Of a stretch of 64,000 nt of DNA, positions 14,852 to 47,500 are shown piece by piece. The stretch is taken from contig CM102286.1 of NCBI GenBank assembly GCA_046563655.1, positions 7,874,001 through 7,938,000 on the forward strand, written 5' to 3'. Numbering within the stretch: the first letter of the stretch is position 1; each line of letters opens with the position of its first letter. Position numbers and translations under genes: made by a program. The DNA comes from Yuukianura sp. NJ FZ-2021. Its lineage: Eukaryota. Below the pieces are notes generated by a model. That model saw only the letters and a program-made list of their open reading frames with translations. It was not told the origin of the DNA and did not search any database.

Positions 14852-17800
14852 AATTTCTGAAAATTTTACGGAAGGGACCCCTGAGGGTCCCCTCCAAGCT
14901 GCCACTAAGTCCTGTTCAAATTTCAAAGAAATGAATTTTTCCGAAACCCAAAAATGTGAAAATTTTTTGAAAGTTTTCGGAAAATTCAAAGTACTGACCA
15001 CGCCCAAAGTCCAGAATGTTTGCAAATTTTATGGAAGGGACCCCTGAGGGTCCCCTCCAAGCTGCCACTAAGTCCTGTTCAAATTTCAAGGAAATGAATT
15101 TTTCCGAAACCCAAAAATGTGAAATTTTTTTCAAAGTTTTCGGAAAATTCAAAGTACTGACCACGCCCAGAATCCAGAAATTCTGAAAATTTTATGGAAG
15201 GAACCCTTAAGGGTCTCCTCCAAGCGGACACTAAGTACTGTGGAAATTTCAAAGAAATGAATTTTTCCGAAACCCAAAAATGTGAAAATTTTTTGAAAGT
15301 TTTCGGAAAATTCAAAGTACTGACCACGCCCAAAGTCCAGAATTTTTGAAAATTTTATGGAAGGGACCCCTGAGGGTCCCCTCCAAGCTGCCACTAAGTC
15401 CTGTTCAAATTTCAAAGAAATGAATTTTTCCGAAACCCAAAAATGTGAAAATTTTTTGAAAGTTTTCGGAAAATTCAAAGTACTGACCACGCCCAAAGTC
15501 CAGAATGTTTGCAAATTTTATGGAAGGGACCCCTGAGGGTCCCCTCCAAGTTGCCACTAAGTCCTGTTCAAATTTCAAAGAAATGAATTTTTCCGAAACC
15601 CAAAAATGTGAAATTTTTTTGAAAGTTTTCGGAAAATTCAAAGTACTGACCACGCCCAAAGTCTAGAATTTTTGAAAATTTTACGGAAGGGACCCCTGAG
15701 GGTCCCCTCCAAGCTGCCACTAAGTCCTGTTCAAATTTCAAAGAAATGAATTTTTCCGAAACCCAAAAATGTGAAAATTTTTTGAAAGTTTTCGGAAAAT
15801 TCAAAGTACTGACCACGCCCAAAGTCCAGAATGTTTGCAAATTTTATGGAAGGGACCCCTGAGGGTCCCCTCCAAGCTGCCACTAAGTCCTGTTCAAATT
15901 TCAAGGAAATGAATTTTTCCGAAACCCAAAAATGTGAAATTTTTTGAAAGTTTTCGGAAAATTCAAAGTACTGACCACGCCCAAAGTCCAGAATTTTTGC
16001 AAATTTTATGGAAGGGACCCCTGAGGGAGGGTCCCCTCCAAGCTGCCACTAAGTCCTGTTCAAATTTCAAGGAAATGAATTTTTCCGAAACCCAAAAATG
16101 TGAAATTTTTTTGAAAGTTTTCGGAAAATTCAAAGTACTGACCACGCCCAAAGTCTAGAATTTTTGAAAATTTTACGGAAGGGACCCCTGAGGGTCCCCT
16201 CCAAGCTGCCACTAAGTCCTGTTCAAATTTCAAAGAAATGAATTTTTCCGAAACCCAAAAATGTGAAAATTTTTTGAAAGTTTTCGGAAAATTCAAAGTA
16301 CTGACCACGCCCAAAGTCCAGAATGTTTGCAAATTTTATGGAAGGGACCCCTGAGGGTCCCCTCCAAGTTGCCACTAAGTCCTGTTCAAATTTCAAAGAA
16401 ATGAATTTTTCCGAAACCCAAAAATGTGAAATTTTTTTGAAAGTTTTCGGAAAATTCAAAGTACTGACCACGCCCAAAGTCTAGAATTTTTGAAAATTTT
16501 ACGGAAGGGACCCCTGAGGGTCCCCTCCAAGCTGCCACTAAGTCCTGTTCAAATTTCAAAGAAATGAATTTTTCCGAAACCCAAAAATGTGAAAATTTTT
16601 TGAAAGTTTTCGGAAAATTCAAAGTACTGACCACGCCCAAAGTCCAGAATGTTTGCAAATTTTATGGAAGGGACCCCTGAGGGTCCCCTCCAAGCTGCCA
16701 CTAAGTCCTGTTCAAATTTCAAGGAAATGAATTTTTCCGAAACCCAAAAATGTGAAATTTTTTGAAAGTTTTCGGAAAATTCAAAGTACTGACCACGCCC
16801 AAAGTCCAGAATTTTTGAAAATTTTATGGAAGGGACCCCTGAGGGTCCCCTCCAAGTGGCCACTAAGTCCTGTTCAAATTTCAAAGAAATGAATTTTTCC
16901 GGAACCCAAAAATGTGAAATTTTTTTGAAAGTTTTCGGAAAATTCAAAGTACTGACCACGCCCAAAGTCCAGAATTTCTGAAAATTTTATGGAAGGGACC
17001 CCTGAGGGTCCCCTCCAAGTTGATACTAAGTCCTGTTCAAATTTCAAAGAAATGAATTTTTCCGAAACCCAAAAATGTGAAATTTTTTTGAAAGTTTTCG
17101 GAAAATTCAAAGTACTGACCACGCCCAAAGTCTAGAATTTTTGAAAATTTTACGGAAGGGACCCCTGAGGGTCCCCTCCAAGCTGCCACTAAGTCCTGTT
17201 CAAATTTCAAAGAAATGAATTTTTCCGAAACCCAAAAATGTGAAAATTTTTTGAAAGTTTTCGGAAAATTCAAAGTACTGACCACGCCCAAAGTCCAGAA
17301 TGTTTGCAAATTTTATGGAAGGGACCCCTGAGGGAGGGTCCCCTCCAAGCTGCCACTAAGTCCTGTTCAAATTTCAAGGAAATGAATTTTTCCGAAACCC
17401 AAAAATGTGAAATTTTTTTCAAAGTTTTCGGAAAATTCAAAGTACTGACCACGCCCAAAATCCAGAAATTCTGAAAATTTTATGGAAGGAACCCTTAAGG
17501 GTCTCCTCCAAGCGGACACTAAGTCCTGTTCAAATTTCAAAGAAATGAATTTTTCCGAAACCCAAAAATGTGAAAATTTTTTGAAAGTTTTCGGAAAATT
17601 CAAAGTACTGACCTCGCCCAAAATCCAGAAATTCTGAAAATTTTATGGAAGGAACCCTTAAGGGTCTCCTCCAAGCGGACACTAAGTACTGTGGAAATTT
17701 CAAAGAAATGAATTTTTCCGAAACCCAAAAATGTGAAAATTTTTTGAAAGTTTTCGGAAAATTCAAAGTACTGACCACGCCCAAAGTCTAGAATTTTTGA

Positions 17801-18410
17801 AAATTTTATGGAAGGGACCCCTGAGGGTCCCCTCCAAGCTGCCACTAAGTCCTATTCAAATTTCAAAGAAATGAATTTTTCCGAAACCCAAAAATGTGAA
17901 AATTTTTTGAAAGTTTTCGGAAAATTCAAAGTACTGACCACGCCCAAAGTCCGGAACGTTTGAAAATTTTATGAAAGGGACCCCTGAGGGTCCCCTCCAA
18001 GCAGACACTAAGTACTGTGGGAATTTCAAAGAAATGAATTTTTCCGAAACCAAAAATGTGAAAATTTTTTGAAAGTTTTCGGAAAATTCAAAGTACTGAC
18101 CACGCCCAAAGTCCAGAATGTTTGCAAATTTTATGGAAGGGACCCCTGAGGATCCCCTCCTAGCTGCCACTAAGTCCTGTTCAAATTTCAAAGAAATGAA
18201 TTTTTCCGAAACCCAAAAATGTGAAAATTTTTTGAAAGTTTTCGGAAAATTCAAAGTACTGACCACGCACAAAATCCAGAAATTCTGAAAATTTTATGGA
18301 AGGAACCCTTAAGGGTCTCCTCCAAGCGCACACTAAGTACTGTGGAAATTTCAGAGAAATGAATTTTTCCGAAACCCAAAAATGTGAAAATTTTTTGAAA
18401 GTTTTCGAAA
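14852..18410. repeat. Satellite array A, ~163-bp unit, about 22 copies
   Basis: GGGACCCCTGAGGGTCCC (or its variant) recurs at 14874, 15037, 15200, 15363 and onward (period 163). Confidence 0.97.
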
Positions 18411-18419
18411 ATTTAAATA

Positions 18420-18872
18420 TTTCAGTGATCTACAAAAAATTTTCAGTGATCGATCAGTGATGATTTTTCAGTGATTAATGAAAAATTTTAAACTGATGAT
18501 TTAGCAGTGATCACTGAAAAATTGACAATTTTTCAATAATCACAGAAAAATAAACATTGATCAGTGAAAAATCAGCAGTGATTACTGAAAAATAGTGGGT
18601 GATCGCTGCAAATTTGTGGTCACTAAAAAATCATCAGTGCTCACTGAAAATTTGTTTAGTTGGTCACTGAAAAATCATCAGTGATCACTGAAAGCATTTT
18701 GGTGGTCACTGAAAAATCATCAATGTTCACTGAAAAGTTTTTACTCTTCAGTGAAGAGTTTTTGGTGGTCACTGCAAAATCACCAGTGGTCACAGAAAAC
18801 TTTTTAGTGGTCACAAAAATCTACAATTTATGAATTTGAAAATTCGTGTATCACGGAAAAATCATCACTGAT
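18420..18872. repeat. Short degenerate repeats of CAGTGAT / TCACTG forming a loosely self-inverted spacer
   Basis: Left part dominated by tcagtgat, right part by ggtcactgaaaa; CAGTGATCACTG palindromes. Confidence 0.7.
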
Positions 18873-18937
18873 GCCTAATCACTTCCAATGTTGATTAATT
18901 AGTGGTAATTTTAACTTTAGGAAAGATGAACTTTATG

Positions 18938-19260
18938 CGTGGTCAGTACTTTGAATTTTCCGAAAACTTTCAAAAAAATTTCACATTTTTGGGTTTCGGA
19001 AAAATTCATTTCTTTGAAATTTGAACAGGACTTAGAGGCAGCTTGGAGAGGACCCTCAGGGGTCCCTTCCATAAAATTTTCAAAAATTCTGGACTTTGGG
19101 CGTGGTCAGTACTTTGAATTTTCCGAAAACTTTCAAAAAATTTTCAAATTGTTGGGTTCCGGAAAACTTCATTTCTTTGAAATTTCCATAGGACTTAGTG
19201 CCCACTTGGAAGGGACCCTCAAGGGTCCCTTCCATAAAAATTTCAAAAATTTTTCTGGAA
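18938..19260. repeat. Two inverted copies of satellite A, the second drifting towards satellite B
   Basis: gcgtggtcagtactttgaattttccgaaaac... is the reverse complement of the array A unit. Confidence 0.92.
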
Positions 19261-22200
19261 GTGCGTGGCCAGCACTTAAGTTTTTCACAAAAAATTTCCC
19301 TTTTTCTGGAGTTTACAACCTCGGAGAAAGTGTTCAACGCATAAATCTACCTCGGAATGGGTACCCACGAGAAGGGACCTTTCTTGGGTACCTTCGTTAA
19401 AAATTTCAAAAATTTTTACTGGAAGGGCGTGGCAAGCACTTAAGTTTTTCTTCAAAAACATCGACTTTTTCTGGAGTTTACAACCTCGGAGAAAGTGTTT
19501 AACGCTTAAATCTACCTCGGAAAGGGTACCCACGAGAAGGTACCTTTCTTGGGTACCTTCGTTAAAAATTTCAAAAATTTTTACTGGAAGGGCGTGGCAA
19601 GCACTTAAGTTTTTCTTCAAAAACATCGACTTTTTCTGGAGTTTACAACCTCGGAGAAAGTGTTTAACGCTTAAATCTACCTCGGAAAGGGTACCCACGA
19701 GAAGGTACCTCCCTTGGGTACCTTCCTTAAAAATTTCAAAAATTTTTACTTAAGTTTTTCTTCAAAAACATCGACTTTTTCTGGAGTTTACAACCTCGGA
19801 GAAAGTGTTTAACGCTTAAATCTACCTCGGAATTGGTACCCACGAGAAGGTACCTCCCTTGGGTACCTTCCTTAAAAATTTCAAAAATTTTTACTGGAAG
19901 GGCGTGGCCAGCACTTAAGTTTTTTTCCAAAAAATTTTCCCTTTTTTTGCAATTTTCAACCTCGGAGAAAGTGTTTGACGCTGAAATCTACCTCGGAATG
20001 GGTACCCACGAGAAGGTACCTCCCTTGGGTACCTTCGTTAAAAATTTCAAAATTTTTAATGGAAGGGCGTGGCCAGCACTTAAGTTTTTTTCAAAAATTT
20101 CCCCTTTTTTTCCACTTTTCAACCTCGGAGCAAGTGTTCAAGGCTTAAATCTACCTCGGAATGGGTACCCACAAGAAGGTACCTCCCTTGGGTACCTTCG
20201 TTAAAAATTTCAAAATTTTTACTGGAAGGGCGTGGCCAGCACTTAAGTTTTTCTTCAAAAACATCGACTTTTTCTGGAGTTTACAACCTCGGAGAAAGTG
20301 TTTAACGCTTAAATCTACCTCGGAAAGGGTACCCACGAGAAGGTACCTCCCTTGGGTACCTTCCTTAAAAATTTCAAAAATTTTTACTTAAGTTTTTCTT
20401 CAAAAACATCGACTTTTTCTGGAGTTTACAACCTCGGAGAAAGTGTTTAACGCTTAAATCTACCTCGGAATTGGTACCCACGAGAAGGTACCTCCCTTGG
20501 GTACCTTCCTTAAAAATTTCAAAAATTTTTACTGGAAGGGCGTGGCCAGCACTTAAGTTTTTTTCCAAAAAATTTTCCCTTTTTTTGCAATTTTCAACCT
20601 CGGAGAAAGTGTTTGACGCTGAAATCTACCTCGGAATGGGTACCCACGAGAAGGTACCTCCCTTGGGTACCTTCCTTAAAAATTTCAAAAATTTTTACTG
20701 GAAGGGCGTGGCCAGCACTTAAGTTTTTTTCCAAAAAATTTCCCCTGTTTTTTGCAATTTTCAACCTCGGAGAAAGTGTTTAACGCTGAAATCTACCTCG
20801 GAATGGGTACCCACGAGAAGGTACCTCCCTTGGGTACCTTCGTTAAAAATTTCAAAAATTTTTACTGGAAGGGCGTGGCAAGCACTTAAGTTTTTCTTCA
20901 AAAACATCGACTTTTTCTGGAGTTTACAACCTCGGAGAAAGTGTTTAACGCTTAAATCTACCTCGGAAAGGGTACCCACGAGAAGGTACCTCCCTTGGGT
21001 ACCTTCCTTAAAAATTTCAAAAATTTTTACTTAAGTTTTTCTTCAAAAACATCGACTTTTTCTGGAGTTTACAACCTCGGAGAAAGTGTTTAACGCTTAA
21101 ATCTACCTCGGAATTGGTACCCACGAGAAGGTACCTCCCTTGGGTACCTTCCTTAAAAATTTCAAAAATTTTTACTGGAAGGGCGTGGCAAGCACTTAAG
21201 TTTTTCTTCAAAAACATCGACTTTTTCTGGAGTTTACAACCTCGGAGAAAGTGTTTAACGCTTAAATCTACCTCGGAAAGGGTACCCACGAGAAGGTACC
21301 TCCCTTGGGTACCTTCCTTAAAAATTTCAAAAATTTTTACTTAAGTTTTTCTTCAAAAACATCGACTTTTTCTGGAGTTTACAACCTCGGAGAAAGTGTT
21401 TAACGCTTAAATCTACCTCGGAATTGGTACCCACGAGAAGGTACCTCCCTTGGGTACCTTCCTTAAAAATTTCAAAAATTTTTACTGGAAGGGCGTGGCC
21501 AGCACTTAAGTTTTTTTCCAAAAAATTTTCCCTTTTTTTGCAATTTTCAACCTCGGAGAAAGTGTTTGACGCTGAAATCTACCTCGGAATGGGTACCCAC
21601 GAGAAGGTACCTCCCTTGGGTACCTTCCTTAAAAATTTCAAAAATTTTTACTGGAAGGGCGTGGCAAGCACTTAAGTTTTTCTTCAAAAACATCGACTTT
21701 TTCTGGAGTTTACAACCTCGGAGAAAGTGTTTAACGCTTAAATCTACCTCGGAAAGGGTACCCACGAGAAGGTACCTTTCTTGGGTACCTTCCTTAAAAA
21801 TTTCAAAAATTTTTACTGGAAGGGCGTGGCAAGCACTTAAGTTTTTCTTCAAAAACATCGACTTTTTCTGGAGTTTACAACCTCGGAGAAAGTGTTTAAC
21901 GCTTAAATCTACCTCGGAAAGGGTACCCACGAGAAGGTACCTCCCTTGGGTACCTTCCTTAAAAATTTCAAAAATTTTTACTTAAGTTTTTCTTCAAAAA
22001 CATCGACTTTTTCTGGAGTTTACAACCTCGGAGAAAGTGTTTAACGCTTAAATCTACCTCGGAATTGGTACCCACGAGAAGGTACCTCCCTTGGGTACCT
22101 TCCTTAAAAATTTCAAAAATTTTTACTGGAAGGGCGTGGCCAGCACTTAAGTTTTTTTCCAAAAAATTTTCCCCTTTTTTGCAATTTTCAACCTCGGAGA

Positions 22201-23262
22201 AAGTGTTTGACGCTGAAATCTACCTCGGAATGGGTACCCACGAGAAGGTACCTCCCTTGGGTACCTTCCTTAAAAACTTCGAAATTTTCACTTGAAGGGC
22301 GTGGCCAGCACTTAAGTTTTTTTCAAAAATTTCCCCTTTTTTTTGCACTTTTCAACCTCGGAGAAAGTGTTAAACACTTTAATCTACCTCGGAATGGGTA
22401 CCCACGAGAAGGTACCTCCCTTGGGTACCTTCGTTAAAAATTTCAAAAATTTTTACTGGAAGGGCGTGGCAAGCACTTAAGTTTTTCTTCAAAAACATCG
22501 ACTTTTTCTGGAGTTTACAACCTCGGAGAAAGTGTTTAACGCTTAAATCTACCTCGGAATTGGTACCCACGAGAAGGTACCTCCCTTGGGTACCTTCGTT
22601 AAAAATTTCAAAAATTTTTACTGGAAGGGCGTGGCAAGCACTTAAGTTTTTCTTCAAAAACATCGACTTTTTCTGGAGTTTACAACCTCGGAGAAAGTGT
22701 TTAACGCTTAAATCTACCTCGGAATTGGTACCCACGAGAAGGTACCTTTCTTGGGTACCTTCGTTAAAAATTTCAAAAATTTTTACTGGAAGGGCGTGGC
22801 AAGCACTTAAGTTTTTCTTCAAAAACATCGACTTTTTCTGGAGTTTACAACCTCGGAGAAAGTGTTTAACGCTTAAATCTACCTCGGAAAGGGTACCCAC
22901 GAGAAGGTACCTCCCTTGGGTACCTTCCTTAAAAATTTCAAAAATTTTTACTTAAGTTTTTCTTCAAAAACATCGACTTTTTCTGGAGTTTACAACCTCG
23001 GAGAAAGTGTTTAACGCTTAAATCTACCTCGGAATTGGTACCCACGAGAAGGTACCTCCCTTGGGTACCTTCCTTAAAAATTTCAAAAATTTTTACTGGA
23101 AGGGCGTGGCCAGCACTTAAGTTTTTTTCCAAAAAATTTTCCCTTTTTTTGCAATTTTCAACCTCGGAGAAAGTGTTTGACGCTGAAATCTACCTCGGAA
23201 TGGGTACCCACGAGAAGGTACCTCCCTTGGGTACCTTTCTTAAAAATTACAAAAATTTTTAA
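19261..23262. repeat. Satellite array B, ~165-bp unit with 145-bp deletion variants, about 25 copies
   Basis: GTACCCACGAG recurs at 19361, 19526, 19691, 19836, 20002 and onward (periods 165, 165, 145, 166). Confidence 0.97.
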
Positions 23263-27314: not shown

Positions 27315-27406
27315 TATTTCTATTTCCAATTGAATAATTATTATTTGTGAAATTATGTTTCAATTGTTAACTACAGCCAGAACGAAAACCAAATTCCACT
27401 CATCTC

Positions 27407-27931
27407 TATGGGGGGAGTTTTGCTGATTAATGTTAGGAATTTTTCCACATTAGGAATGCCTAAAATACGGGCTATTCCTGACGCAGAACATCCTGACGTC
27501 GGATTCCTGATGCAGAAATTCCTGACGTTCAATTTCTAATGCAGAAATTCCTAACGCAGAAAATCGTGACGTCCAATTCCTAATGCAGAAAATCGTGGCG
27601 TTCAATTCCTAACGCAGAAAATCCTGGCGTCAAATTCCTAACGTAAAAAATCCTGAGGTCCAATTCCTAATGTAAAAATTTCTGACAGTGATTTTCTAAT
27701 GTAAAAATTCCTGGCAGCGAATTTCTAATGTAGAAAATGCTGACAGATAATTTCTAATGCAAAAAATCCTGACAGACAATTTCTAACGTAAAAAATCCTG
27801 ACACACATTTTCTGAAGTAATCAGCTGATTCCTAATGTAAAAATTCGTGGCGTGGAAAGTTCGTGTTCAATTCCTGGCGAGGAAAGTTCACAGGCTTTCA
27901 CTTTCTCATTTTCATTCTCTCTCTATTGTAA
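27407..27931 (+). repeat. Left TIR with internal ~29-bp tandem repeats
   Basis: Reverse complement of 35376-35887; repeats like ttcctaacgcagaaaatcctgacgtccaa at ~27476-27850. Confidence 0.92.
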
Positions 27932-28258
27932 CACATTCTTTCTACTGTTGAGAGAGGGCGTCAATGGCATGCATAAAATACTTGGTTATGTGATAGTTTA
28001 TTTACAAATGTTGAATGGAATATAATAATAAATATATATATAATATATATAATATGAGTATTATAAGTATTAACAAGAAAATTCAACGTCTTCTTATACT
28101 AAAAACGAAGAGACAAATTCCAACAAAAGCTTTCTTGAAACCAGATCTTTTAGCAATAGTCATTTGAGTTAAGGATACAGGGATACAGTAATTAGATACA
28201 ATAATGAGGATTACTTGAATTTTAAATCTAATTAGGCGTAGGAGGGTAGCGCTACCCA

Positions 28259-29516
28259 TTAATTAAAATAAACTCTAACGAGGACTCGCAGTTTCTCTTT
28301 ACAGATAGGACATCTTGGAGACTGTACTCTTCCAAAATCATCGCGCGGAACGTTCGCTTTTACGCCTTCGATGCATCGGAGACAGTACTGGTGGCCACAT
28401 TTTAAAACGTACTCCTTGTTGTGATCGTAACAAATTGAGCACAGCATCTGCAGTCCATAAACGATTCATTACTGCTCAAATATTTATGCATACTTATATC
28501 CATGCCAGACTCGTTAGCTTACCCCCGTTTTTAGAGAGTCCATTTCCTCATTGACACGATGTGACCCTTGTTCCTTAAGAACTTCTTTGCGTCTTTTCAA
28601 TTCCTTCAGTTCTGTTTCCATATCCCTGCAATCAGAGAATTGTTGCAGACAATTCAACATATGCTCTGCGTCAGCGATCTTCTTCTGAATTGTTTCCAGG
28701 TTAGTCAGCATTGATTCGAAAATTTCTGATGTAGGAGAGCGCTCTCCTAGTTTGCTTTGACAAACTTCCAGGTCAAGTTCGACCTCTTTAATGAAGTCGT
28801 GAAGCCTCGGACCTTGTATGCCAAACTCCTTCAATTGCGCAACAACCTTTGAGACTTTCGCGTACAGAGGTTGTCTAACTTCGAACAATTGATTTACAGT
28901 GAGTTGAAACATTTTGTCTTCCTCGTCCCAAAACCGTGTTCCCCTGTAGCATTCTATATACTAAAACAAAAGAAAAATAACACTTTTAAGATTGGCCGCA
29001 ACAAAAAAACTAGGCTAGATGAATGGATCGCGCGATCCTTACGTTTCTCGAATGCGCGATACCATCCCTCATTGATGCTAGTCGCGACTTTAGTAGCTGG
29101 TGCAGTTCGGTCGCAGTTACTAAATCTTCGCGATGAGACATGAGAGTTGGCTTTTGGATATAGTATAAACCAAACTCCACCTCTGCGATCACGTCCAGTT
29201 CAGCGTCAAGGTGCTTACGTAACATGTCTCGCTGCAATGAAAGTTTCAAGTTATTATCTTATCTCCTCACAGATTTCACTTCTTAGCAGATAATGTTAAA
29301 CAATGCATTACTTACATGATGAATAACTGGTGAAGTACGGATACTTTGCTTCTCTCGCCATTTCTGTTTCTCCGCTTCCGGTTTTGGAGCCAGCATTCTG
29401 CGTTCCGTTACTGCTGAACGTTTTGTTTGGATGGCGCCATCCGAGCGCATATCCGTCGTACAAGCACGTCGGTGATGGCCTAAACTACCGCAAGACCAGC
29501 ACCCACTGGAACTCAT
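28259..29516 (-). CDS. Zinc knuckle + coiled-coil + C3HC4 RING protein (~338 aa; exons 29516-29316, 29231-29043, 28960-28523, 28447-28259), putative E3 ligase
   Basis: CWSCGSLGHHRRAC (CX2CX4HX4C); heptad-like middle region; CSIC...CGHQYCLRC...CPIC; three phase-0 GT-AG introns give an open frame. Confidence 0.85.
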
Positions 29517-30796
29517 TTTAACGTGAAACAACTTTCTGGAATTTATAAAGAATTGAATGTTTATATTTTCTGGAAGCGTGTAAAACTAATTCTAAAACTT
29601 GGCCTGAAGCTAAACACTAACGAGCATCGTTGCAACCACCACTGTCATCTGTGTCTACAGTTCATAGCTAACCGCCGCAACCACATCGCTCATGATTCCT
29701 ACAACATGAACATTTACTCAATTTGATTTCGAATGGTTTTTTATATTGAAATATTTCCATAAATTGTAAGGACAAAAGATAAATACATTACTTAAACTTA
29801 ATTACAAAATTACTATTATTCGTCCTTACTTCAGCCAAAATAACTGTGCGATTGGTGTATCTAAACCACTGCTATTTCGGACTACGAATTCGAATTTTTT
29901 AACTACGAATTCGAAAAGACTTATGTGGCGTGGAATAAAACCTAGATTTCTCAAAAACGAAAGTCCAGATTTTGAATTCCTTTCGCAGGTTCATAGCACG
30001 CATGAATCTGCGTACTTATGGAAAAATTTAGCTTTCGCACTGGTCGAAGTCGAAAGTTATGACCATCCTTTTCCACCAGCTTGGCTAGATTTGAGGACTA
30101 CAGAATTAAAATTTTGAATACAACTGATACAACTGAACAAACAGTAATCACTATGACTGATTCTGACGATACATAATAAAAATTAATTAATACACTACAG
30201 CTCAAAAACGACTGTCCAGATTCTGAACTCGTTTTGTACACTTAAAGCTTCTATATTGAAGGATGTTTCAAGAAATTTGTAGCTTTCTTGCTGATCCAGG
30301 TCAAAAGTTATGACAATTTAATTTCAAAACCTACCCACTCTCGCTTAAATAAGGCTTTGAACCTTGGTAGCTTAAATCCTATCTCAACGCCTTAAAGTAA
30401 AGATAAAGTACCGTATTTTAAAGCAAAACTGTTTTCATAAGGTTTCATTGATGAATTCCACTGGCGGTCAAAAGAGATTATGTTTTACGTTAAATTAAAT
30501 TATTAATTAATTAATTATCATATCTCATTAATTAATTTATTAATCAACTATCAATTAATGAAAAGACGGGTTGAAAGCCCACGTCTTCTACTGATTTCTG
30601 ACTATAGGTTGTCAATATTCATTTCTTAAAAAAAGTTGAATAAGTAACTGACCACCGAACAGTTCGAGTTCTGACTATTATCCAGACCCCTCAGGTATTT
30701 CTTTGGAACCTGTTTACTTCCCGTGTTTTCACAGTATTGAACTACTATGCTTATTGCATTTCGTGTAGCGCTACACTTTAAGGTGCATTGCTGGTT

Positions 30797-32500
30797 ATGG
30801 AGCACCTAACGCAGCAATCCTTACGTTGCTCAATCCAGCAACTCATCAACGCTTTAAACGAAGGTGCGGATTTAGACATAGTCACACAAGGTTTAGATTT
30901 CCTGTTGTTAGAACTCGAGCTGTGTAACCAACAGGAACACTGGGTTGTTGAATCGGTGTCTAAATTGACAGAAGTTACAGCTCTATTGGTGCAAGAGTTG
31001 GAAGGGGAAACATTGCGCAAACTAGGAAGACCAAGAATTCATATTCCTATTGAAGATATTGAGTTTTTACTATCCTTCCGGTTCAAAGTCGTGGATATTG
31101 CCAAGTTGTACGGGGTGTCAAGGGATACAATAAGTGGACGCCTTCGAGACCATGGGATTTCGGTAACTACTAAGTTACACCATGCTTAGCGCTAAGCAGT
31201 AAATGTGAATGGGCTGACTCTGTTTTGTGAACAAAATTATCAGGTTTCCCACAGCTATACAAACCTAACTGACGAACAACTACAGTCGGAAATGCTGAAA
31301 ATTTTACAAGACTTTCCAAACACAGGGTACAAACGAATGAAAGGATTCCTCTTAAGCAATGGCATTAAGGTGGCGGACAAAAGGGTTCGACTAGCTATGA
31401 GGGAAGTTGACCCTGAAGGTGTCGCTTTACGACGACGAGGCAACAGAGCCATAGTACGCCGGCAATACAGAATGACCTATTCCAACGAGCTATGGCATTT
31501 GGATACAAATATGAAGTTGATCAGGTTGACAAATTTAATAACAGCAGTTTAAGGAAGTTGGAAAGCGCTTTCCGTTGTTAAATGTTTTAAGTTTATTTTA
31601 GGTGGAACATTATAATCAGGAGCTGTATCGATGGGAAGTCACGGGTTGTAGTTTATCTGGATGCCAGTGCCGATAACACGTCCAAGAGTAATTTGGAATC
31701 ATTCTTAAAAGCTGTGACAAAATATGGTATTCCTTGGAGGACTCGCTCGGACAAAGGCGGGGAGAATGTGTCAATTGCTCAATTCATGATTGAAAACCGT
31801 GGAGCTGGAAGAGCAAGTCATATTTGTGGTAGGTCGGTGCACAACCAAAGGTGAGTAGCGCTACTCCAAAAAAAAAATAGTGTCATATCATAAAACCATA
31901 ATCTTAGTTTGTAATTATGTTAGGATTGAGCGGTACTGGAGAGACGTTTACTATGGGTATACGAGCACAATTGCGAGTGTACTAATTGCGCTGGAAGAGG
32001 ATGGGTACCTGGACATAGATAACCCGAAGCATGTAGAACTTGTCCACTTAGTATTTGTTCCAAGAATTAATGACGCTTTGGAAGTTTTTCGAAATGCCTG
32101 GAATAATCACCCATTGTCGACGGAAGGAAATTATAGTCCAAATCAGCTCATGTTACTCAACCTGCCGCCCGATGACCATGTCCAACACATTTCTCAGGTA
32201 CTTTGCGTAGCGCTACGCATCGGAGTTGAGAAAATATAATGTTTTTTCATGACGAATATACCAAATCCGTTCCTGTTTCCGTAGGAGGATGTGGACGACT
32301 ACTTGTGCCAGGACTTGTCTGATGTTGCGTACCTGGTTCCACCGGATGTGGATTCGATAACATCGCCAATGAGTTTGGCCGGAAGTATTACAGAAATTGA
32401 ATTGGATAGACTAAGACAGCTGGACTTCAACCAACCGTCATCCAGCTTTGGCTTTGACATATTTCTAAACGCAGTGGGCCTACTTGATTTCACATCGTAA
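30797..32500 (+). CDS. IS3/integrase-like DD34E transposase (~461 aa; exons 30797-31162, 31244-31524, 31602-31850, 31924-32197, 32285-32500)
   Basis: HTH (VVDIAKLYGVSRDTISGRL), GYKRMKGFL, catalytic WHLDTNMKL, RSDKGGEN, HNQRIERYWRDV; all splice junctions preserve the frame. Confidence 0.92.
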
Positions 32501-32746
32501 AAAACGAAGCAGATTTTGTTTAATCTGAATAGGATTAAATAAATTAGTGTGGCGCCGCACTACAGAAAATAAGCTGAAATCGTATCAGTTAGCGTTTTCT
32601 CGCAAATATTGCTACATGTGGCGCCACATAAAACGAAATAAATAATCTGAAAGAACTAAACTAGAAGTAAAGTAGCATGGGTTTTGTGAAGTTCGAATTA
32701 AGTAAATACATAACGCAACAACAATAAGTACACTTCCTCCGACGTG

Positions 32747-35170
32747 CTAGACTCCCCCGAAACCGTTGCTTGCGTACCGCACGACGAGATTCAACTTCTC
32801 CACTAGTTCCGTGCAACTGAGGTCATTTGGAATTTGTATTTCATTGAAGCACGCACGAACCATGAAGTCAACATCGTCTTCAAAACGTACAATTAAAGGA
32901 TCTTCCGGTAAAACGGGCCAACCAGTCCACGCGGACAGCAGATTCTGTAGACCACCTGAAACTAAATATAGCAGTTAGTATGTTGAGCATTCCGGAGTAG
33001 CGCTACTCAACTTTGAGTAACGTAACTTACGCAGTTCCAAAGATTCTATGAAGCTGGTTACAACCGAAAGCATTTCTTGTCTTCCGTGACATTCGATTTT
33101 GGAAATAAGCAAGCTGGAAGGATAATTAAGTGCTGAACTCCGAGGAAATAAAGATTCAACTAAGTACGACTTTCCTTTCAGGAATTCATTCAGTCCTGCG
33201 CACTTGAATCCAGCTTTAATCGCCTCCAGTTGTGCAACGCGACGGTCGACGACGGCATGATATAACACTTGTTCTATGACAAAGCCAGAGTTGTGTTTGT
33301 CGACGGTTTCTCCGAATTCCGATGATTCTGCCACCTCTTGCACATGCGCTGCCTCATCCTCCGTTAGAGTGGCGCCACTCTGCAGTTTCGCCAACTAATT
33401 TTTTTCAAAGTTGCGTGAAATTAAATCAAAAGTTAAGTTAATCAAACAACAAAATGATTAAGTTACCAATGCAACTGCTTCACGAACGTGAAGTTCTGGA
33501 ACGTCCTCCACGGTGATAGGAAGTGGCGTATCACTATCAACGGTTTCAAGAAATACGTACTGCGCCACCGCCTCACTCAATCCAATAAACGCGATTCCGC
33601 AATGTAAAGCAGCGTGACCCAAAAACTTTCCAATCGTTTTGAAAACCCCAGCGCGAAGGAGCCTTCCATCTGTTGCCGGAACCTTGTGGTCTAGTTCACC
33701 TTCGAAAGCAGGAAGGCCATCTATCTTGTCTTGAACTATTGCCGTCAGTCCTTTCCAAAAGTATTCACGAGTTATTGCTCCAATGTCGGCCCCTTCAAAA
33801 TGATAGTTAAAATAAACTAAACATTTTAATCAATATAATTAGTTGGATAGCGCTATCCTAGTACCGGGTTCACCCTGAAATTCTACTTTTGGTTTCTTCA
33901 GGAAGTTGAACGCAGGATCCTTGTAAATGCCAAGAATTTTTTCTAGAAAACGCTCTCTTGAAGCAAGAATATACTGAAACCCTTCGTTTTCCATGTAAAT
34001 TTGTTCGCGGTAATGGTCCAATGTCAATAGTTCTCCCTCGATTGATGGCGATGAGTTCGCAGATGTATCGTTCCGGGTAACCTCCGACAAAGGCAAGTGC
34101 TGATTAACAGCACCCTCGAGTGTTGAATTTAATGCCGAAGGCTGTCGTCCGTCTCCGACCGGTGTCTAAAAAATGGATAACGCCATCCATTAAACATTGT
34201 TTATCACTAACCTCAACATAGAACTTACAACCATATAATTTGAGCGAGGAAGTTGAAGATTAACTTCAGGTTCGGCACTCAAGCCTTGGTGAAGCTCCTC
34301 TGAATCCACTGGTATGGGTTGATCAAGCTGAACATCCACTGCTACGTGTGGTAACGGTTGTTCAATTCCTTCCGCAACCTGTGTCAAGTGTAAACAGTTC
34401 CAATTACAGTTAGTTTTGATTAGGATAGCGCTATCCATACAAAGCAATACTTAAAATGAGTGTAGACGAGGAACGTAACTTACACTTAAAATGTCGGAAA
34501 CTGGCTGGACGTAGATAACTGCAAGTCGAGAAGCGCGTAAATGCAGCACACCAGGCACTGGCTCCGTGTTTGATACTCGAACCAATGGCTTCCCTTTACC
34601 ACCAGTCAGTGCACGATATAATACAACACCTACTGCAACTAATTTTGGGAAAGTGCTTTCCAGTGCCGCCTTCAATGCGTCAATTGTTGCAGTGGGATCT
34701 AGCAAAGTAACAATTGATCATTACCCATGCCACACTCTACACCTTTATTTAAAAAAAAACTAACCAATTGTGATAACTTCTTCCCCTAGTCCATGCCTTT
34801 TGAGAAGTAGCATACGAGATTCGATTGGTGTTTTCGATTCCGAAGGTCCACCAAGACAACAGTACCTGGCAGTCCAAGGCCTTATATTACGTACCGGTAT
34901 GGAACGATGTCGAAGTGCTGGGCGCCCAGTTAATCGCAGACCAGCAGCTGAAGTCGATGGTCTAGGATAAGGTGCAAACAGGCGAGACATTTCGGATCGC
35001 GCGAGTCCATTGGTAGAGCTTCCGGATTGACCTTGTTCTTGTCTTCGAGTTACCACTGGTGTAGTGTGACCCGGAGTCACTGTTGTAGCTGTTGGAGACT
35101 CAACGCCAAGTAAACTAGCAAGTTGGGTAAGAATTTGAGTAGCAGTAGCTCTGGTATTTCCATCCGCCAT
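32747..35170 (-). CDS. HECT-domain E3 ubiquitin ligase-like protein (~656 aa; exons 35170-34765, 34698-34484, 34378-34229, 34165-33865, 33792-33467, 33394-33031, 32955-32747)
   Basis: VEFQGEPGADIGAITREYFW, FKTIGKFLGHAALH, QLEAIKAGF, LLSAWTG, catalytic RACFNEIQIP and C-terminal GFGGV*; frame intact across 6 introns. Confidence 0.88.
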
Positions 35171-35375
35171 ATTGGGCTGATTTGTATTAGTTCCGGTGTT
35201 AGAAAACCGTCACGACAAAATTCTACATTGATTGATATACAGTATTTGAAATATCGCAACACTTATCCACAAAAGAGTGGCGCCACTCAACAGACGTGTA
35301 GCACTACACCTAAAAATGTAACGCTAGTTTTTTTCATTGCCGATAACGCCCCCTCTTGACGGTTGCAAAATGTTT

Positions 35376-35887
35376 TTACAATAAAAAGTGAGAATGAAAA
35401 TGAGAAAGTGAAAGCCTGTGAACTTTCCTCGCCAGGAATTGAACACGAACTTTCCACGCCACGAATTTTTACATTAGGAATCAGCTGATTACTTCAGAAA
35501 ATGTGTGTCAGGATTTTTTACGTTAGAAATTGTCTGTCAGGATTTTTTGCATTAGAAATTATCTGTCAGCATTTTCTACATTAGAAATTCGCTGCCAGGA
35601 ATTTTTGCATTAGAAATTCACTGTCAGAAATTTTTACATTAGGATTTGGACCTCAGGATTTTTTACGTTAGGAATTTGACGTCACGATTTTCTTCGTTAG
35701 GAATTTGACGCCAGCATTTTCTGCGTTAGGAAATGGACGTCACGATTTTCTGCGTTAGGAATTTAGCGCTAGGATTTTCTGCATTAGGAATTGGACGTCA
35801 CGATTTTCTGCGTTAGGAATAGCCTGTATTTTAGGCATTCCTAATGTGGAAAAATTCCTAACATTTATCAGCAAATCTCCCCCCATA
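35376..35887 (-). repeat. Right TIR of the IS3EU-like element
   Basis: Reverse complement of 27407-27931; inner ~250 bp nearly identical, repeat copy number differs slightly. Confidence 0.92.
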
Positions 35888-35911
35888 CATCTCTGAAAAA
35901 ATTTTCTCCTC

Positions 35912-44597: not shown

Positions 44598-47500
44598 ATG
44601 GAGAAGTCAAACATTGCGTGAGTTTATCGCAAACATTTAACACAAACTGTTTGTGTTAGCTTAATTTTTGATGGTGTTGAGCAGTTTGTAATTGATTTTT
44701 TTAGACTGGATGAAGCCGATCGCCATGATTCCCGTGCGAAGCCCCATCCTGTCGATGCTGCTAATTGGTTCTCCTTCAGCACATTCTCATGGATCACTTC
44801 ACTCATGTACTCATCTTACCGAAATGGGTTAAATCCTACCGAAATTCCATTCGTGTCGCTTTGGGAATCATCTCAATTGAACACTGACCAATTAGAGAAG
44901 AATTGGAATGAACAACTGAAGATGTCTTCCGCAAGTCCCGGACGTAACAATTCACGATTTGGAAAAATCGTATGGAGTTATGTCCGCAAACGTGTCTTGC
45001 TTACAAGCATCGTGTATTTAACCTCGGTTCTGGTCGGATTTATAACTCCAACTATCTGTATGCGACAACTGCTAAGATTCTCAGCGAACCCTGCAGCCAC
45101 CCTGGGCGAAGGCGTGTTTTGGGTTGCGCTGCTAATCCTCTGTGAATTTATTCGAGTCGGACTTTTTACTCTAACGTGGGCTCTGGGATATCGGTAAGTT
45201 CAGCACAAATCGGTATTTAGAAGGACTGCATCGAAGTAGTACCTAACACCAAACTTTTCTGTATCTGTTGTACGGATTGACTGTAATTGTTATTAATAGG
45301 ACGTCGATTCGATTGAAAACTGCTGCGATGGGCCTCACATACCGAAAACTGCTCCGTCTGGGTTATGTTACCGACAGTACTGCTTCTACAGTAAGGAAAT
45401 TGATTTATTTGTAAAAGTGTATTCATTCTTTCCTTGATAATATTTTGAACTACTATGAATTCGTCCACAGATAACGAATGTCATCGTTAACGACTGCAAC
45501 CGAATTTATGAAGTCATCGTTACGACACAGTTAGCAATTGGAGGACCGTTTGTGCTCATCCTCTCTGCCATTTACATTACGTATGAATTGGGACCAGTGG
45601 CGCTCGTAGGGTTGATGGTCTTTCCGCTATTTTATCCCATTCAAGTAAGAATTGCTATAGACCTGCTTGTGACCGTGTTGTTGTTATGTTCTAAAGTGAA
45701 ATTATTTACAGTATTTATTGGCAAAAGGAAGCGGAATGTGTAAACGGAATGCAGTCTATATTCAGGATACTCGAATCACCTTCGTGTCACAGGCGCTACA
45801 TTACTTGAAATTTCTAAAGATGTTCGCCTGGGAAAAATATTTTCGGAATCTTATTTGCGGTGAGTGAGTTAAAACAACTTGAAAATATTTTTTAAAGGTT
45901 CATGAATTACAGTTTTCTTTATTCCTGATTGTTTTTCCCATTAGATGCGAGACTTTCCGAGAAGAAATTCATTCAGCGAGCTCAGTTGTTGTTGAGCATG
46001 AGCGTCGTCATTGCGCCTACGCTTCCACACATTGGGGCTATCATCACATTTCTTCTGTACATTAATTCCGGTCATAATCTTTACCCGGCTCAGGTGAAGC
46101 GATCGATTTTACAGTCAATAATTTTCATTTTTCAATGTGCTAAGCTATTACTGTTTCCTCTTACCCCGAAATTCTTTTGAAACGCCATGTGAAGCTTTAT
46201 ATGTTGTATTGTTGTACCATACAACTTGTATGTAGCTTGTTTGTTCAATTTACAGGCTTTCTGCGTTGTGGCAATCTTTAGTGGAAGAATTCGGCCGTCC
46301 ATTAACAAAGTCCGTTCTGGTCTACGTTCATATTTCGATGCTCAAATTGCCATCGAAAGATTAGAGGTGCTTGGGAAATATTTATTCTAACACTCTTTAT
46401 TGTTGTATCCTCCATCCGCTTTATTCGTAGTTCTACTTGCTTTTTCTCTTTTTTCGTTTGCTTTCGTCTGCTATTCATCGTTTTAAACTAATTCCAATGA
46501 TATTAGTAGTAGCATATACCATTTTTAAAACTCTTTTCAGGCATTTACGATGTTATTTTTATTTTCTCTATTTGGTTACTCCGTGCGTTCTATTACACAA
46601 ATCTTTGATTTCGCCAATGCATTTCATCTTTTTACGAAACGGATGGAGGTACAACGTTATTGCTTCGGAGAAAAAAACGCATTAATTACAAAATGTTAAT
46701 GTGACGCTGTTTTTGTGTTCAGGCTGTCTTGATGATCCCGGAGATGCGACGGGGGGAGCACGACAAGACTATTCTCGGAGAAAAGTCTAACGTAATCTCT
46801 CTCAAGCAAGTCACACTTCGTCGCCGTGCCCCGGTCGATTCGTCACAACGTATTGGCAAACGTAATCGCAAAGTGAAACAGGCTACAGCAAATTTCGGAA
46901 GAACGGAACAGGAAAAGACCGACCCGAGATCGCCAGTTTGCACCTCCACTGAAGGTCAGAAATTGCTGACACAAAACCAAGTTCCGGAAGTTATTGCCTT
47001 TCAAATGGAGGATATTAGTCTATCAATCAAAAAAGTAAGTTCGTTTTTACATTTTTGCTTGCACTTTTGCTAACGCTATTTACATTCTTTTCTGCTTTTA
47101 ACAGGGTTCGTTTGTCGGGATTTGTGGCCAAGTCGGCAGCGGAAAAAGTGAGTTGGACTTCTTTACTAAAACTACGGCCATAACTTTCGGCTTCTGTATA
47201 CAAGACACAACTTTCTATAACTTTTATTGCATCGTTCTTTCCATTTTATTTGCTCATGCTGCCATCGTACACCACAATACTTAAATTCGTGCAACTGAAG
47301 GTACTTTCTTGGAAGCAATCGCTGGTGCGCTTACCGTAGAGCAAGGAACGCTGAATGTGTTTGGCTCGATTGCCTATGCTGCTCAAGAGCCATGGTAATG
47401 CCAGCTTCAATAACATAGAAGTTTAGGAAAGCTTCTTGATTCTTATGGTTCTTTAGTCTAAATTTTAAACTTCAAACTTTACCTTAAACCATTACTGGTT

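Follow-up and report, generated by a model that had tools for sequence, protein, structure and literature searches.

Introduction

To our knowledge, DNA transposons of eukaryotes carry their cis-acting sequences near their termini; an example is provided by the subterminal transposase-binding repeats of Ac and En/Spm, which lie near the termini and share one sequence. Here we describe a different arrangement in a 64,000-nucleotide stretch of DNA from Yuukianura sp. NJ FZ-2021 (contig CM102286.1, positions 7,874,001 to 7,938,000 of the forward strand; hereafter the window), in which a DNA transposon of the IS3EU/GingerRoot type contains 16 perfect palindromes centred on GCGC. The two arrangements are alike in that short, element-owned motifs differ between families, and the subterminal repeats of the elements studied here are often short dyads as well. 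The palindromes, however, are distributed through the whole body of the element and inside its genes, they are evenly spaced, their arms vary from site to site, and their centre in the window element differs from that of its own end repeats.

As a transposon, the element is unremarkable and belongs to an established superfamily. TA..TA termini and a target-site duplication that is usually 6 bp are features of IS3EU/GingerRoot elements, as set out in the consulted portion of PMC10045372, and the window element shares both, together with an integrase-type DDE transposase (Pfam rva_4). It is set apart by its palindromes, which the distant members of the superfamily among the loci sampled do not have. 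The terms “palindrom” and “hairpin” do not occur in the GingerRoot paper (PMC6839031), “palindrom” does not occur in that same portion of PMC10045372, and full-text literature searches, with supplements outside the search, returned no description of such palindromes.

Other systems offer partial parallels. Retroviral dimerisation palindromes such as the HIV-1 dimerisation initiation site (DIS), with its subtype-specific GCGCGC or GUGCAC, combine a self-complementary centre with complementary arms, and lineage-specific centres could keep lineages apart in both cases. The DIS, however, is a single site in a packaged RNA genome, with a loop of at least 6 nt and unpaired flanking purines, whereas the sites described here number 16-26 per element, are uninterrupted dyads without unpaired loop bases and belong to a DNA transposon; no reverse transcriptase or capsid gene was found in the element. 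Integron attC sites are imperfect, bulged dyads recognised as folded single strands by tyrosine recombinases. The REP sequences that go with RAYT transposases are likewise DNA sites read by their structure, according to the consulted portion of PMC8266576. Both resemble the present sites in that the sequence varies while the dyad structure is kept, and their families co-vary with their protein, but they are imperfect bulged bacterial dyads served by tyrosine recombinases or HUH enzymes, whereas we deal here with perfect dyads in an animal. Neither a tyrosine recombinase nor an HUH gene is present in these elements, in which only transposase, HECT-like and RING genes were found. Finally, EBNA1 repeats and papillomavirus E2 sites are clustered dyads of one consensus bound by dimers, and they too comprise many copies of a short dyad-symmetric site; the half-site GGATAGC/GGGTAGC appears by eye to resemble that of EBNA1. 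Unlike those arrays, the sites here are spread evenly through genes and follow no single consensus, and no protein related to EBNA1 or E2 was found here. The palindrome system as a whole matches no kind of element known to us.

Results

Sixteen GCGC-centred palindromes of the window are confined to one transposon

The palindromes are non-random. A scan for every perfect palindrome of at least 12 bp across the 64-kb window returned 53, of which 16 are GCGC centred, and all 16 lie within positions 28244-35288, inside the transposon. GCGC itself occurs 93 times in the window, 29 times inside the element and 64 times outside; perfect palindromes of at least 12 bp form at 16/29 of the inner sites and at 0/64 of the outer ones, where the half-length reaches a maximum of 5. 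When the inner 7350 bp were shuffled 1000 times with dinucleotides preserved, the number of GCGC palindromes averaged 0.058 and never exceeded 1. An initial annotation of this DNA, made from the letters only, had expected far fewer than one such palindrome by chance and had seen none as perfect elsewhere in the window. Palindrome density was compared with that in the remaining 55 kb of the window and in 561 kb of distant relatives.

The half-length is 7 in 11 of the palindromes, 8 in three, 9 in one and 6 in one; if 14 bp were required and longer arms arose by chance, about three quarters would be exactly 14 bp, which agrees with the observed 11/16. All coordinates and sequences of the 14 palindromes in the initial annotation proved exact, but two more are present (28732-28749 and 34918-34929). 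Its three imperfect copies also exist, although two of them start one base later than it had placed them (at 32546 and 34174 instead of 32545 and 34173; 35296 was right). Among 40 of the 366 letter differences in four DNA runs, none falls inside a palindrome, a sample too small to use.

The sites are listed below; their placement follows in-silico splice models without RNA support.

28244..28257, palindrome GGGTAGCGCTACCC, directly 3' of the RING-gene stop
28732..28749, palindrome TAGGAGAGCGCTCTCCTA, 18 bp, RING-gene exon, missing from the earlier list
29025..29038, palindrome GGATCGCGCGATCC, RING-gene intron 2, 4 nt in (donor GTAAGG)
29429..29442, palindrome GGATGGCGCCATCC, RING-gene exon 1
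30763..30776, palindrome GTGTAGCGCTACAC, 21 nt before the start codon of the transposase gene
31183..31198, palindrome TGCTTAGCGCTAAGCA, transposase intron 1
31560..31573, palindrome GGAAAGCGCTTTCC, transposase intron 2
31853..31866, palindrome GAGTAGCGCTACTC, transposase intron 3, where it overlaps the splice donor (GTGAGT)
32204..32219, palindrome TGCGTAGCGCTACGCA, transposase intron 4
32546..32561, imperfect copy AGTGTGGCGCCGCACT with a single T.G pair
32616..32629, palindrome ATGTGGCGCCACAT, between convergent stop codons
32995..33008, palindrome GAGTAGCGCTACTC, HECT-gene intron 6
33366..33381, palindrome AGAGTGGCGCCACTCT, HECT-gene exon, coding for S-G-A-T
33845..33858, palindrome GGATAGCGCTATCC, HECT-gene intron 4
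34174..34189, imperfect copy TGGATAACGCCATCCA, HECT-gene intron 3
34423..34436, palindrome GGATAGCGCTATCC, HECT-gene intron 2
34918..34929, palindrome CTGGGCGCCCAG, 12 bp, HECT-gene exon 1, missing from the earlier list
35275..35288, palindrome GAGTGGCGCCACTC, some 100 nt before the start codon of the HECT gene
35296..35309, imperfect copy GTGTAGCACTACAC with GCAC as its centre

Across the three window genes, 8/13 modelled introns carry a palindrome. Perfect palindromes are found in all four coding introns of the transposase gene (4/4), in 3/6 introns of the HECT gene, a fourth holding an imperfect copy, and in 1/3 introns of the RING gene. For the coding introns, this is the distribution first described, in which each transposase intron (five there, counting a putative 5'-UTR intron), four of six HECT introns (one by an imperfect copy) and one RING-gene intron had a palindrome. 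The exon count had to be revised from two to four (28732, 29429, 33366 and 34918), and four palindromes lie just outside coding sequence (28244, 30763, 32616 and 35275).

Related elements carry palindromes with lineage-specific centres

With transposase exon 3 as the query, a protein search returned relatives that reach 78% identity. Scanning of metagenome contigs gave 190 confirmed stretches; the 80 best were retained, and every one of these was examined. Homologous elements share the trait: perfect palindromes are dense in 23 loci at 61-80% exon 3 identity, and each of these loci has a single type of centre. The centres are GCGC, GATC and ACGT, all of them 4-nt palindromes, and the counts of palindromes of at least 12 bp below are given by a centre type that was assigned to each locus after its palindromes had been seen, some palindrome-bearing loci having one palindrome only.

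GCGC-type, 11 loci, 23.6 kb: GCGC 34, GATC 1, ACGT 0
GATC-type, 10 loci, 38.5 kb: GCGC 1, GATC 113, ACGT 0
ACGT-type, 2 loci, 6.8 kb: GCGC 0, GATC 0, ACGT 9
Remaining distant loci, 561 kb: GCGC 4, GATC 8, ACGT 11

The trait is restricted to one clade. In a maximum-likelihood tree of exons 2-4 with 33 rows (25 clade and 8 chosen outgroup loci, the remaining distant loci being left out), the palindrome-bearing loci all lie on one side of a branch with a Shimodaira-Hasegawa-like approximate likelihood ratio (SH-aLRT) of 99. The clade includes two short contigs, L011 (1.7 kb, 32% G+C, zero GCGC) and L038 (1.0 kb). GATC needs three changes in the best tree and ACGT one. A constraint uniting all 10 GATC loci was rejected by the approximately unbiased (AU) test (p 1.4e-7), but it was not rejected without L004 (p 0.33), a locus that rests on a single palindrome; the tree groups were named after the tree had been seen. 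Because the grouping of all 10 GATC loci is rejected, the centre would have changed more than once, a conclusion that depends on L004. At least one main GCGC/GATC split, one ACGT shift and one single-site change are supported.

L020 is a full-length relative of 6.4 kb, and its inverted ends lie at 124-266 and 6253-6479; it has 24 palindromes of at least 12 bp and encodes transposase and HECT-like genes only. Its terminal inverted repeats contain palindromes, so that the end repeats of this element do carry sites of the ACAAGATCTTGT type, whereas the ends of the window element are TGACGTC-like and not GCGC. Perfect short dyads were also seen in presumed end repeats of three other loci: TAAATCGATTTA four times at 26-bp steps in L017 (877-966), GTGTATATACAC three times in L013 (248-344) and GTGCGTGCACGCAC seven times in L025 (926-2105). 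The centres of these dyads differ from GCGC, GATC and ACGT, and the transposase may generally bind dyads.

The palindromes are conserved, symmetric in their substitutions and evenly spaced

On sequence comparison, the palindromes are maintained by selection. Orthologous intron palindromes are identical at 10/10 to 18/18 letters, or at 12/14 via one symmetric pair, in introns the rest of which is 0.33-0.63 identical. Thus, AATCAAGATCTTGATT is unchanged across L005, L006, L013 and L018, and AGTTTGACGTCAAACT is unchanged between L007 and L015. (Three L009 pairs were mis-scored as 0 because the script took another dyad in the intron; L009 does contain TCTAAGCGCTTAGA.) Four differences between orthologous palindromes were seen, and all four are symmetric pairs, two of them inside the centre. 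L006 has T..A where L013 has G..C, and L023/L039 have TCTAAGCGCTTAGA where L016 has TCCAAGCGCTTGGA. The two centre differences are between L003 and L004, in which the arms GTGTA and TACAC enclose GCGC (GTGTAGCGCTACAC) and GATC (GTGTAGATCTACAC), respectively, and between L005 (TGTCGATCGACA) and L006 (TGTCAATTGACA) at the same exon offset. The arms thus differ yet stay complementary through selection and not through copying, as had been suggested from the window element, and the compensatory substitutions whose absence would have spoken for the opposite view account for 4/4 of the orthologous differences.

Palindromes in exons are accommodated by codon choice. Within the main GATC clade, the exon 3 codons for YGIP(Y) spell TACGGGATCCCGTA in 6/8 loci and are one G-to-A off in the remaining 2, and 0/20 other sequences (the window and 19 loci) have a palindrome of at least 12 bp at this position; codon choice is tuned to the palindrome here in the GATC lineage only. 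Of the 63 transposase introns in the 23 relatives, 29 contain a palindrome with the centre typical of their locus, and the exons of this gene hold 28 more.

Spacing was more even than random in 6/6 elements tested, with coefficients of variation of 0.19-0.51, and simulations as even as the observed spacing ranged from 0/200,000 (p <5e-6) up to 3.7e-4. Regularly spaced introns may account for some of this evenness.

Structure of the sites and a possible role in RNA

Enrichment is limited to inverted repeats without a spacer. For stems of at least 6 and spacer 0, we counted 9-26 inverted repeats against 1-2 in shuffles, whereas for spacers of 1-8 nt, 46/48 counts were within the shuffle range, the exceptions being spacer 4 in L001, above that range, and spacer 2 in the window, at its maximum. 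Among 361 centre sites, 172 are perfect (at least 12 bp), 8 have one G.T, 12 have one A.C and 24 have one transversion-type mismatch; a hand count of transposase-gene sites with a known sense strand gave 5 A.C and 1 G.T. Predicted hairpins are weak (-1.9 to -4.9 kcal/mol as DNA and -3.7 to -6.6 kcal/mol as RNA, with z-scores of -0.5 to -2.5). The 5-6-bp stem with a free GCGC loop put forward in the initial annotation does not agree with a centre that is always self-complementary and changes symmetrically, because a 4-nt hairpin loop would not require symmetric centre changes. Selection on hairpin structure in general likewise finds no support in repeats that are unenriched at spacers of 1-8 nt, in G.T pairs that are not favoured and in hairpins of such low predicted stability.

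These results bear on the best-surviving alternative to a role in DNA, namely that the palindromes are elements of RNA, either stem-loops bound by protein or self-complementary segments through which transcripts pair, with effects on splicing, export, localisation or protection from silencing. We regard this as unlikely, although a good part of the placement data would suit it. The 16 palindromes of the window are all within or near three transcription units, and both the terminal repeats and the 1.3-kb intergenic region are free of them; introns are rich in them, not only in the window but also in the transposase genes of the relatives, where the density is 6.4/kb in introns versus 1.2/kb in exons (5.5-fold); and some overlap a splice donor, e.g., GTGAGTAGCGCTACTC. 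A bimolecular self-duplex would, moreover, need pairing everywhere, the centre included, which fits the symmetric centre changes, and since each mismatch counts twice in such a duplex, it would account for the poor tolerance of wobble. Against this, hairpins with a free loop are not enriched, G.T is not favoured over A.C in either count, the predicted RNA hairpins are weak, 34/63 introns of the relatives have no palindrome, and palindromes are present inside the terminal repeats of L020; nor do we know of any DNA transposon, cut-and-paste or copy-and-paste, in which dimerisation of transcripts plays a role. The palindromes occur in exons, introns and untranslated regions and in genes of both strands; conserved asymmetric flanks were not seen around them. 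Splicing control, an earlier proposal, is not borne out in the relatives, where fewer than half of the transposase introns carry a palindrome and exons hold many. A simple RNA stem-loop, splicing control and a site for the RING protein are all disfavoured because spaced repeats are unenriched, wobble is unfavoured and sites are found in exons, untranslated regions and inverted ends.

The initial annotation also pointed to methylation of the CpGs in the palindromes. The element has a CpG observed/expected ratio of 1.03, compared with 0.94 for the DNA outside and 0.84-0.92 for the relatives; with a ratio of about 1.0 there is no methylation footprint, and the GATC centre contains no CpG. Decay of CpG as the route from GCGC to GATC was rejected by reasoning, as it would yield GTAC and the real change needs two transversions. 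Some palindromes have decayed via transitions (G-to-A at L018 703 and L021 1291, GCAC at window position 35296 and GCGT in L001 intron 3), and these coexist with the overall CpG ratio of about 1.

The host element, its genes and its surroundings

The element, which by its integrase-type transposase, termini and 6-bp duplication is an IS3EU/GingerRoot-type DNA transposon, occupies positions 27407-35887, with TA..TA termini, a 6-bp duplication and inverted ends of 570 bp. Its features are as follows.

27401..27406, left target-site duplication CATCTC, the identical hexamer flanking both ends
27407..27978, + strand, left terminal inverted repeat, starting TATGGGGGG
28262..29510, - strand, CCHC zinc-knuckle/coiled-coil/RING-finger gene, 4 exons modelled
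29954..30519, nested high-copy repeat (566 bp) in the only long palindrome-free stretch (29443-30762)
30797..32500, + strand, transposase gene, 461 aa, open spliced five-exon frame (exons 30797-31162, 31244-31524, 31602-31850, 31924-32197 and 32285-32500)
32750..35172, - strand, HECT-like E3 ligase gene, 7 exons modelled
35328..35887, - strand, right terminal inverted repeat, ending CCCCCCATA
35888..35893, right target-site duplication CATCTC

The start TATGGGGGG and end CCCCCCATA give the TA..TA termini. The inverted ends (27407-27978 versus 35887-35328) are 89.8% identical over 576 columns of a blastn self-match, and each contains about a dozen 29-bp subterminal repeats with short TGACGTC(C/A)A-like dyads. 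These dyads (27475-27830 and 35460-35820) are imperfect, and their ACGT centre is the internal centre of the sub-lineage of L007 and L015; one 29-bp unit of the window element reads TAGCGCTA instead of TGACGTC(C/A)A.

Transposase exons 3 and 4 match Pfam rva_4, “Integrase core domain” (E 1.3e-29 and 1.4e-20), exon 2 matches HTH_21, and the intron positions are common to relatives across the clade. In the RING gene, Pfam zf-CCHC scores below the cut-off on exon 1 (E 9e-4), and several RING models score above it on the last exon. An exon-by-exon Pfam search of the HECT-like gene gave no match and a PDB sequence search with exon 5 gave a chance match only, but full-length homologues of exon 5 exceed the Pfam HECT cut-off (P0234, 46.4 bits; P0239, 54.7; P0245, 46.1; P0289, 35.5), and its HECT-like identity follows from them. 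The long homologues P0250 and P0289 have CxxC...HxxxC zinc-finger-like motifs ahead of the HECT domain. A HECT-like gene stands beside the transposase in all three centre types, and it was seen about 2.5 kb downstream of the transposase in the distant palindrome-free loci L028-L036, L044 and L080; the pairing of ligase and transposase looks old.

The contigs of four DNA runs include several copies of the element as well as end-to-end deletion derivatives, in which the left end is joined to the right at 27438/35774, 27595/35770 and 27457/35543, skipping about 8.2-8.3 kb. Because these contigs join both ends directly, short end-only derivatives exist in the same sample. In the same runs, the contig depth of the nested repeat is 4- to 1000-fold above that of neighbouring bins.

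The surrounding host genes (3440-6860, 8040-13420 and 44600-50300) are ordinary looking and encode oxoprolinase-like, C2H2 zinc-finger and ABCC5-like transporter proteins; the flanking ABC-transporter exon has its nearest matches in springtails (59% and 55% in Orchesella, 54% in Allacma and 52% in Folsomia), which places the host among the Collembola or close to them. A large repeat array (15203-18316 and 16500-23000), which is unrelated to the element, contains ACCCTTAAGGGT, 12 bp with a TTAA centre, four times and yields long repetitive open frames on both strands.

Discussion

Our tentative explanation, the leading one among those considered, is that the palindromes are strand-symmetric, cis-acting sites in the DNA, kept by purifying selection and read by a lineage-specific factor. 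The selected trait would be complete two-fold symmetry of the DNA, the centre included, such that the two strands read identically. The tetranucleotide at the centre (GCGC, GATC or ACGT) would be the lineage-specific part of recognition, and the arms would be free in sequence but required to mirror each other. The sites may be read as duplex dyads by a dimeric factor or, alternatively, as identical fold-back hairpins on a single strand during replication or copy-out transposition, and the centre specificity of the reader would have changed between sub-lineages. That the sites act in DNA and that a reader exists we infer from these properties, and the function is suggested solely by the even coverage of the element. 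Because spacing is even, at about 200-500 bp, it suggests short-range marking across the whole element, and candidate functions would be self-recognition controlling transposition, protection against self-integration or local control of chromatin. The self-marking proposed in the initial annotation is compatible with these data.

Several observations weigh against this explanation. A dimer that binds duplex DNA would account for the centre and not for the mirror-image variable arms, whereas a fold-back form, which a palindromic centre would make independent of orientation, would account for the arms and, at such a length, has only marginal predicted stability. The terminal repeats of the window element hold no GCGC palindrome of at least 12 bp in the 64-kb scan, nor does 29443-30762, the stretch of ~1.3 kb between divergent gene starts. 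This placement and the excess of palindromes in introns also fit a role in RNA. No reader stands out among the proteins of the element: the helix-turn-helix region of the transposase shows no visible tracking of the centre type among the relatives compared, the RING/CCHC gene is missing from full-length L020, and the HECT-like gene is also found in distant relatives that lack palindromes. In the window element, the dyad of the subterminal repeats is another, TGACGTC-like one, and because this dyad differs, the internal sites are not simply extra end-binding sites. Lastly, L011 and L038, inside the clade, have no palindrome of the three types, and the assignment of centre types after inspection also tells against the reading.

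An improbable further reading is a lineage-specific code for self-recognition, in which, each site being identical on both strands, pairing would take place between any copies, strands or transcripts and the centre would prevent cross-talk between sub-lineages, much as subtype-specific dimerisation centres do in retroviruses. If this were true, self-pairing of nucleic acid, beyond protein-DNA contacts, would tell the element's own copies from all else, and it could serve the counting of copies, the pairing of copies or the avoidance of self-integration.

It is very improbable that the palindromes are a functionless by-product of mutation, produced by template switching during error-prone replication. 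Template switching does turn near-palindromes into perfect ones, centre included, and the palindromes are perfect and confined to a mobile element. Such a process gives no reason for one centre per lineage (113:1 and 34:1) or for a sharp minimum length, and it explains neither the even spacing nor palindromes that stay unchanged beside introns diverged to 33-63% identity. Centre specificity, conservation and even spacing largely refute it.

Recognition by the element's own zinc-knuckle RING protein, which the initial annotation had named as an example, is less probable still. CCHC knuckles bind exposed bases of single-stranded nucleic acid, and a CCHC-knuckle/coiled-coil/RING protein is encoded by the window element and by L007, but the CCHC match is below the Pfam cut-off, and L020 has its 24 palindromes with no RING gene. 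Because L020 encodes only transposase and HECT-like proteins, a RING/CCHC protein cannot be the general reader in cis.

Least probable of all is that the palindromes are landing pads, preferred targets at which this or another transposon inserts with little harm: although the family makes 6-bp duplications, a 14-bp dyad can be read as such a duplication with 4 bp on each side and a palindromic target-site model is in print (consulted portion of PMC2577343), the single readable insertion (n=1) duplicated the non-palindromic CATCTC in non-palindromic flanks, the only nested insertion seen sits in a palindrome-free stretch, and exon sites kept through codon choice are left unexplained.

Two further origins were rejected. 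Excision footprints, P-nucleotide insertions from hairpin opening and a tiny palindromic insert are incompatible with in-frame exon palindromes that arise by codon choice; no flanking direct repeats were seen by eye around the palindromes. The chance meeting of degenerate half-sites for a dimer would give perfect symmetry at a few percent per site, by a hand estimate, and cannot give 16/16.

Read as cis-acting DNA sites, the evenly spaced palindromes with their lineage-specific centres look like an undescribed marking system maintained by selection. An entire clade keeps 16-26 perfect dyads distributed evenly through its genes, which constrain introns, untranslated regions and codon choice, and a four-base centre that switches between sub-lineages would be the signature of a recognition system with a co-evolving reader. 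We know of no transposon function that calls for such a system. The palindromes would supply natural, orthogonal tags of 12-16 bp, and the reader and its purpose, if found, could reveal a layer of self-recognition, of immunity to self-integration, of replication-coupled control or of anti-silencing in this family of transposons.

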